Source: Escherichia coli
GTDB lineage: Bacteria > Pseudomonadota > Gammaproteobacteria > Enterobacterales > Enterobacteriaceae
Length of the DNA stretch: 64,000 bases
Direction: 5' to 3' (one strand)
Assembly: GCF_044324785.1 (NCBI RefSeq)
Contig: NZ_CP172127.1
In this document: positions 13,827 to 14,117 of the stretch, one piece after another
Position numbering within the stretch: position 1 is the first letter of the stretch
Layout: every line of letters starts with the position of its first letter
Position numbers and translations under genes: made by a program
The notes under the pieces: generated by a model
Told to the model about the DNA's origin: nothing
Seen by the model: only the letters and a program-made list of their open reading frames with translations
The model's database searches: none

Positions 13827-14117
13827 AAACCAGCTGAATGAAGGAGAGAATTTTAAAAGGTTGGGGGAGTAAACGGGATTATTAATTGCTTATTTGCATA
13901 TTAGTTACGAGGTTTCATAATCTTAGGAAATAAGTGATACATGCGCTTTTCGGACTAATGAAAACTGCCCCTGTGCTAAATTTGTAAACCCTGCGCCGAC
14001 AGGCTTGCGTAAAACTCTTTTGGTGATAATGTGAGCCTTCCAAATCCAGACTATTCCGATTTGGGATCCATTTTGCCGTCCTGGCGTGTGTAACCGTTTT
14101 ATCAAGGAATAAGCAGT

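Follow-up and report, generated by a model that had tools for sequence, protein, structure and literature searches.

In Escherichia coli K-12, the toxin-antitoxin module dinJ-yafQ lies between the genes yafL and dpaA (yafK). In the stretch of DNA analyzed here (64,000 nucleotides, referred to below as the window), a preliminary description noted that these two genes are separated by about 290 bp without a credible open reading frame (ORF), and proposed that the backbone has lost or never acquired the module. This raises the question of whether the short interval is the scar of a deletion, the product of a later exchange, or the original state of the locus. We consider it highly probable, at roughly 85%, that the interval is a native, ancestral toxin-free control region, that the cassette was acquired in genomes of the K-12 type, and that the difference between the two is a common, documented polymorphism.

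Locus layout and absence of dinJ-yafQ

When mapped by blastn, the window corresponds to the E. coli chromosome in reversed orientation relative to K-12. Positions 1-6939 map to proB-phoE-crl-frsA-gpt-pepD-prfH and positions 7958-12901 to yafP-yafN-dinB-lafU-lfhA, and lfhA is followed by yafL, yafK/dpaA, yafJ, gmhA, and fadE. In the ORF listing, yafL occupies positions 13068-13826 on the minus strand and encodes an NlpC/P60 (C40) peptidase of 252 amino acids (aa) when counted from the first ATG (Pfam NLPC_P60, E = 3e-33). PGAP places the start at the second ATG (window position 13817; 249 aa), as annotated in 2012C-4221, a genome whose 232-bp allele-specific block, defined below, is 100% identical to that of the window. 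The dpaA gene (positions 14118-14858, plus strand) encodes a 246-aa peptidoglycan meso-DAP protein amidase (Pfam YkuD), which is 100% identical to K-12 DpaA over 246 aa (tblastn). Both genes are adjacent and divergent, and positions 13827-14117 are exactly their intergenic spacer, with a length of 291 bp, or 300 bp when the PGAP start of yafL is used. The K-12 MG1655 locus (b0224-b0227) has the same flanking genes in the same orientation, and its mature YafL is approximately 94% identical to that of the window at the DNA level. However, its spacer measures 906 bp, inside which both dinJ (86 aa) and yafQ (92 aa) are found, in agreement with the position given for the module in K-12.

The absence of dinJ-yafQ between yafL and yafK was confirmed by tblastn, blastn, and PGAP annotation. 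Queried against the whole 64-kb window, the K-12 DinJ antitoxin yielded a best tblastn E value of 6.6, with no match in 13827-14117, and the best match of the YafQ toxin (E = 0.29) is located elsewhere than in the spacer. Searches of the interval for dinJ or yafQ coding sequence by tblastn and by blastn (word size 7) returned none, the latter also finding no remnant of the operon DNA in 13827-14117. In K-12, a LexA box (CTGAATAAATATACAG) is positioned 32 bp upstream of dinJ; the spacer at 13827-14117 contains no CTG-N10-CAG motif. Over the full 64 kb, DinJ, YafQ, and the LexA box are all absent, and none of the elements that make up the module (a DinJ/RelB ORF, an adjacent YafQ/RelE ORF, and a LexA-box promoter) was found.

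The description of the spacer as lacking a credible ORF also holds. Only two ORFs of at least 30 aa occur in it, both TTG initiated and on the minus strand (94 and 60 aa), and the 94-aa ORF extends into the start of dpaA. Neither of the two matched a Pfam family, and the PGAP annotation of matching genomes contains no feature between yafL and dpaA. The locus has the properties of an empty-site allele, in that yafL and dpaA adjoin divergently across a spacer of ~290 to 300 bp with no gene between them and homology spans the whole block 13746-13977. The marks of a deletion scar, namely, residual cassette sequence or a K-12-type yafL 5' end at the junction, were not found.

Borders of the replaced block and flanking control regions

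A pairwise alignment with K-12, proposed earlier as the means to set the borders of the indel, locates both of them. Homology to K-12 stops at 13745/13746, within the yafL signal-peptide codons and just before ASA|TTSH, and restarts at 13978 (AAATTTGTAAACC...), which in K-12 lies 16 bp past the yafQ stop codon. Between these borders, 232 window-specific bp (13746-13977) stand against 839 K-12-specific bp, the latter consisting of 72 bp of the yafL 5' end, the 209-bp yafL-dinJ spacer, dinJ, yafQ, and the 16-bp tail. The difference between the window and K-12 is a replacement (232 versus 839 bp) that extends into the yafL signal-peptide codons, and not a clean 540-bp indel. At the pairwise level, a simple model of insertion into the same spacer fails, as the two blocks reach a Smith-Waterman score of 18 against a shuffle mean of 20.4 (standard deviation, 2.6). 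The yafL-proximal homology of the blocks appears only via third sequences, from Citrobacter and Phytobacter.

The short direct repeats envisaged at the borders did not materialize, with only a trivial AAAT common to both, and direct or inverted repeats flanking either block are limited to short pairs at chance level. Regarding signs of a transposon or insertion sequence, the K-12 cassette shows no target-site duplication beyond the 4-bp AAAT and no terminal inverted repeats.

The replaced block has two parts. The first is a hyperdivergent yet orthologous yafL 5'/promoter allele. The second is a true indel, in which approximately 52 bp of the window (13926-13977) take the position of a K-12 cassette of ~0.65 to 0.7 kb (L001 5946 to ~6636 in our K-12 coordinates). 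This "empty site" was placed by aligning window-type, K-12-type, Citrobacter, and Phytobacter sequences; its right border comes from the K-12 alignment and its left border is approximate, by ~30 bp either way. The left edge of the cassette itself is marked by a jump in identity between K-12 and Escherichia sp. MOD1-EC7003, from 83 to 91% up to 98 to 100% at ~L001 6636, followed by a drop at the right junction. Independent support comes from plasmid-borne relatives (~68% identity), which align from L001 ~6562 to ~5981. The borders match the limits of functional constraint, represented by the YafL cleavage motif on one side and the conserved dpaA block on the other.

In multiple alignments, an AT-rich element (ATTATTAATTGCTTATTTGCATATTAG...TTTCATAATCTTAGG) in the yafL-proximal half of the spacer (13827-13925) is conserved across Escherichia and can still be recognized in Citrobacter. 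This half is presumably the yafL promoter region. A promoter scan reported a sigma-70-like site on the plus strand at 13893-13921 (TTTGCA-17-CATAAT), as a consensus match only.

The signal-peptide codons of the toxin-free yafL allele (13746-13826, minus strand) encode MSFMSSFFHGRFLHPGVFSLCVLLPLL ahead of the common ASA|TTSH. The K-12 signal peptide, MSLPSIPSFVLSGLLLICLPFSSF, differs and is not alignable with the window allele at the DNA level. Based on the A-x-A motif, signal peptidase I is predicted to cleave after ASA, and since ASA is kept in both E. coli forms of YafL, the mature proteins would be the same. Of the 678 positions of mature yafL (13068-13745), 43 (6.3%) differ from K-12, evenly spread, compared to ~1.8% for the neighboring dpaA-yafJ. 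The YafL proteins of other Escherichia species show only 88 to 95% identity. YafL is listed as "probable lipoprotein, Cys conserved" in a table that Ramisetty et al. (2016, PMC5120126) quote; E. albertii and Escherichia sp. E1V33 and L002 lack the Cys behind this label in their signal peptides.

According to multiple alignment and blastn, the yafL 5' region of other genera has its ortholog in two parts of the K-12 block, namely, the signal-peptide codons of yafL and the ~130 bp that precede them. This K-12 region includes an AT-rich element, CTTAATAAACCATTATTATAAAATTAA...ATTTCAGT, and 48 bp of the K-12 upstream sequence match that of C. amalonaticus yafL (81% identity, E = 2e-6, blastn). By a residue count on the alignment, the two E. 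coli YafL signal peptides resemble that of Citrobacter to about the same degree. A foreign K-12 signal peptide, brought in by the cassette, was considered and rejected, as it is as Citrobacter-like as that of the window and comes with the 48-bp upstream match. Upstream of yafL, the K-12 type is closer to Citrobacter than the window type is over one stretch, comprising the GCAGTGTA motif and the AT-rich element. The proposed ancestral polarity would cover the cassette, with the yafL 5' allele set apart, one sub-region of which points the other way.

On the other side of the empty site, positions 13978-14117 are nearly identical to K-12, with about two differences at most. In a conservation profile of 81 Enterobacteriaceae loci (including Escherichia, Citrobacter, Enterobacter, Klebsiella, Raoultella, Kluyvera, Leclercia, Salmonella, and others), the dpaA upstream block is conserved from TTGTAAAC onward. 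Over ~135 bp, it is nearly base-for-base conserved across many genera. In K-12, the upstream edge of this block is exactly where the cassette stops. RNAalifold analysis of 20 genera or species recovered no compensatory pairs in the dpaA leader; therefore, the conservation is one of sequence and not of RNA structure. Similarly, an Rfam search of positions 12800-14400 (E ≤ 1) placed no family in the spacer at 13827-14117. Judging from the border alignments and the conservation profile, positions 13978-14117 (plus strand) would comprise the native dpaA promoter, operator, and leader together with the ribosome-binding site, and are probably a promoter or operator that has not been described before.

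This bears on the transcription of dpaA in K-12. In Table 1 of Ramisetty et al. (2016, PMC5120126), yafK, downstream of yafQ, is entered as "likely cotranscribed, no promoter." This entry is at odds with the conserved block and with the 2084 genomes without an upstream operon (see below), which argue for a promoter belonging to dpaA itself. As the block is kept with or without the cassette, it touches on the cotranscription assumption for yafK (PMC5120126) and also on the interpretation of dinJ-yafQ deletion strains.

Distribution and origin of the toxin-free state

In E. albertii, Escherichia sp. E1V33, and L002, yafL adjoins dpaA without dinJ-yafQ, and YafL has the window-type N terminus. 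The 232-bp block of the window aligns with these three at 76 to 79% identity over ~230 bp (blastn, E values from 1e-43 to 5e-51). Although L002 is labeled "E. coli," it is only 92 to 94% identical to the window, and we rejected it as a conspecific and count it as another Escherichia species. In total, three of the four non-coli Escherichia species sampled are toxin free. Outside the genus, DinJ/YafQ was found within 4 kb of dpaA in none of 76 loci. Fourteen of these loci, from Citrobacter freundii-complex species, C. amalonaticus, and Phytobacter, contain yafL, which in all 14 directly neighbors dpaA in divergent orientation, without a module in the interval. Because the module is missing from the 76 non-Escherichia loci and from three of four Escherichia species, the toxin-free architecture is most likely ancestral and the cassette acquired. 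By blastn, window-type spacer DNA had no match in Citrobacter at E ≤ 1, and the link between the two is based on the multiple alignment, gene order, and the N-terminal YafL protein sequence.

The cassette is present at the same site in Escherichia sp. MOD1-EC7003 (L005), along with a K-12-type yafL 5' end; therefore, the insertion is either old or has crossed species borders. Between K-12 and this strain, the cassette (L001 5946-6636) is 98 to 100% identical and the flanks are 83 to 95% identical (yafL, 83 to 94%; dpaA/yafJ, 91 to 99%). The near identity of the cassette between species suggests that it spread by recombination or recent exchange, or that it is under unusual constraint. In addition, RelB/DinJ-RelE/YafQ modules on 40- to 43-kb plasmids of Klebsiella, Citrobacter, and Enterobacter share ~68% nucleotide identity with the K-12 cassette, in a match that starts ~59 bp ahead of dinJ and stops close to the yafQ end. 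These modules illustrate that the element missing from the window belongs to a mobile family. A plasmid donor of the cassette was not retained as a candidate: near-identical plasmid matches are F-prime plasmids or chromosome fragments filed as plasmids, and true plasmids stay at ~68%.

Within E. coli, both states are frequent. The window-type 232-bp block is carried by 2084 of 5426 complete genomes (38%), all of these matches having at least 80% coverage, with identities from 100% down to 77.6% over at least 88% of the block. The K-12-type 839-bp block is carried by 3340 (62%). Since 2084 and 3340 add up to 5424, the number of genomes holding the locus, the two states are mutually exclusive, with no recombinant or double carrier seen. 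The allele of the window itself is in the minority (101 genomes at ≥99% identity), and the commonest toxin-free E. coli allele differs from it by point substitutions and an 11-bp indel. ATCC 25922 is toxin free, with a 232-bp block 89% identical to that of the window, and in PCN033 the whole 2-kb query, including the toxin-free spacer, matches as one unbroken piece. Cassette carriers include O157:H7 and K-12. These examples are consistent with the published distribution. An uneven phylogroup distribution and horizontal transfer of type II toxin-antitoxin systems in E. coli are reportedly the subjects of studies by Fiedoruk et al. in 2015 and by Ramisetty and Santhosh in 2016, both cited in PMC7167474, as their titles indicate. 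González-Alba et al. (2019, PMC6896753) described yafQ-dinJ as present in every EB1A genome and as confined to phylogroup F in the FGB2 lineage, a distribution that was read as independent acquisitions. The presence/absence polymorphism of dinJ-yafQ is already known in substance. The finding is consequently of little significance: the window represents the documented toxin-free state, which does not mark its backbone as unusual. Its uses are modest and lie in the polarity of the toxin-free state, in the definition of the cassette borders, and in the persistence of the conserved dpaA upstream block in both states.

Taken as a native region, positions 13827-14117 would be the intact yafL/dpaA divergent control region, in the toxin-free architecture ancestral for Escherichia. 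The K-12 dinJ-yafQ would be an acquired cassette of ~0.65 to 0.7 kb, comprising its own promoter, the LexA box, dinJ, yafQ, and the 16-bp trailing sequence, and flanked by the AT-rich element upstream of yafL on one side and by the conserved leader of dpaA on the other, a position taken up in the window by ~52 bp. The K-12-type haplotype would also carry a deeply divergent yafL signal-peptide/promoter allele. Transcription of yafL and dpaA in the window strain presumably starts only at the promoters of the two genes themselves, and none controlled by LexA/DinJ would enter dpaA. From the earlier statement that the module was lost or never acquired, the comparison with K-12 stands, and the locus reads as an ancestral toxin-free layout, not as a deletion derivative.

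The main competitor of this native reading is a secondary loss by allelic replacement, in which a K-12-type ancestor would have received the locus from a toxin-free donor, with crossovers in yafL and in dpaA or the dpaA leader. We regard it as quite unlikely. Haplotypes of this locus do move by recombination, as seen in a cassette that is 98 to 100% identical between species within flanks at 83 to 95%, and the restriction of the module to phylogroup F within the FGB2 lineage (PMC6896753) fits a replacement, the end product of which would be indistinguishable from a never-occupied site. However, it is not the simplest account. Mature yafL is evenly 6.3% diverged from K-12 and the surrounding 20.5 kb are at most 98.0% identical to any complete genome, which suggests an independent lineage and not a recent mosaic. 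Toxin-antitoxin addiction would disfavor a replacement as well.

An in situ deletion, by which dinJ-yafQ was excised from a K-12-like locus and the 291-bp spacer left as the scar, is effectively refuted. The spacer is indeed shorter than in K-12 (291 versus 906 bp), and the nearby yafO has a real internal deletion. However, the window holds 232 bp that are absent from K-12 and homologous to other Escherichia species, and it therefore cannot be a deletion derivative of a K-12-like locus. In addition, the window contains no cassette remnant, its yafL signal-peptide allele differs from that of K-12, and the borders lack repeats. A real deletion at this locus looks quite different: in E. coli PSS-11, an IS1-associated deletion took yafL, dinJ, and most of yafQ, and of the K-12-type segment only the final 60 bp, from the yafQ end, remain next to dpaA. 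This is a true secondary loss with a visible remnant, unlike the window spacer.

The least credible idea, that the spacer hides an unrecognized small gene or RNA replacing the function of the module, could draw on the two minus-strand ORFs in or across the spacer and on the extreme conservation of its dpaA-proximal 140 bp, but both ORFs start with TTG and lack Pfam matches, the 94-aa ORF overlaps the dpaA start, PGAP annotates nothing in the spacer, neither an Rfam family (13827-14117) nor compensatory pairs (RNAalifold) point to an RNA, and the conserved block is also present in the cassette-bearing K-12 and is thus no alternative to the module.

Next to the native reading of the window, a broader proposal can be made for both haplotypes, which we consider possible although doubtful. 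The locus may represent an old cross-species dimorphism of Escherichia, in which the cassette is linked to the hyperdivergent yafL signal-peptide/promoter allele (0 recombinants in 5424 genomes) and the borders, set by selection, fall exactly at the YafL cleavage motif and where the conserved dpaA leader starts. If true, two cell-wall enzymes would have their expression rewired in carriers of dinJ-yafQ, yafL through a newly gained promoter and leader peptide and dpaA through transcription that enters it under LexA/DinJ control. Strains like the window strain would then show the unperturbed regulation.

yafO, rayT, and other features of the window

The preliminary description also listed yafO and rayT as missing, which is correct insofar as rayT is absent and yafO is cut to its first 8 codons (8963-8940), just ahead of yafP. 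The 373 bp corresponding to K-12 252326-252698 are missing from yafO. Both yafP and yafN are intact, the latter at 8969-9259 with 98.97% identity to K-12, and the strain carries an orphan YafN antitoxin in the dinB-yafN-yafP operon. The yafNO locus (8940-9259), a type II toxin-antitoxin locus in K-12, is incomplete by a real deletion, in contrast to the scar-free empty dinJ-yafQ site. The body of yafO is present in 2844 of the 5426 complete E. coli genomes (52%).

Between lfhA and yafL, rayT (yafM) is absent and the spacer measures 161 bp (12902-13062). As rayT occurs in all four other Escherichia species sampled, its absence from the window looks like a loss; among the E. coli genomes, it is present in 3575 of 5426 (66%). 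The lfhA-yafL spacer contains a GC-rich palindrome with 36-nucleotide arms (12938-12973 and 12989-13024) that are 92% complementary. This palindrome (12938-13024) resembles the E. coli BoxC repeat. MicroRNA-type Rfam matches at 12937-13025 were dismissed as meaningless products of the long palindrome, and they fall outside the yafL-dpaA spacer.

The grouping of the three missing elements as small accessory cassettes cannot be maintained, given that yafO shows an internal deletion, rayT an apparent loss, and dinJ-yafQ an empty site. These differences are three separate histories, and all are common polymorphisms.

Over positions 1-20500, the best match among the 5426 complete E. coli genomes is strain N3, at 98.0% identity; therefore, either complete RefSeq genomes contain few members of the source lineage, or the lineage is filed under a name other than E. 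coli. At 2706-2716, the alignment with K-12 MG1655 runs unbroken across the insertion point of IS1 in crl, and the window has no IS1 there, unlike MG1655. Two ORFs, at 6414-7112 (232 aa) and 7025-8164 (379 aa), occupy the position of the K-12 prfH and ykfJ pseudogenes and span ~1 kb (6940-7957) that is absent from K-12. They are presumably intact prfH and RtcB-family ligase genes. An "RNA ligase RtcB family protein" is listed among the features of a matching genome under the 20.5-kb match.

Further along the window, an island of ~31.6 kb (20508-52124), next to the aspV side, is absent from K-12, which has yafT-ykfM-yafU-yafF remnants at this position. The island encodes a type VI secretion system, including TssC/VipB, ClpV, TssM/IcmF, VgrG, and a 1409-aa Rhs protein, and a DDE transposase ORF is located at 20595-21452. 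Finally, the yafJ-gmhA spacer (15650-15716) measures 67 bp, compared to ~150 bp in K-12, and an ORF running through it translates as SPSPFQGEGRGEG, in a GC-rich repeat of the same kind as that at 12938-13024.
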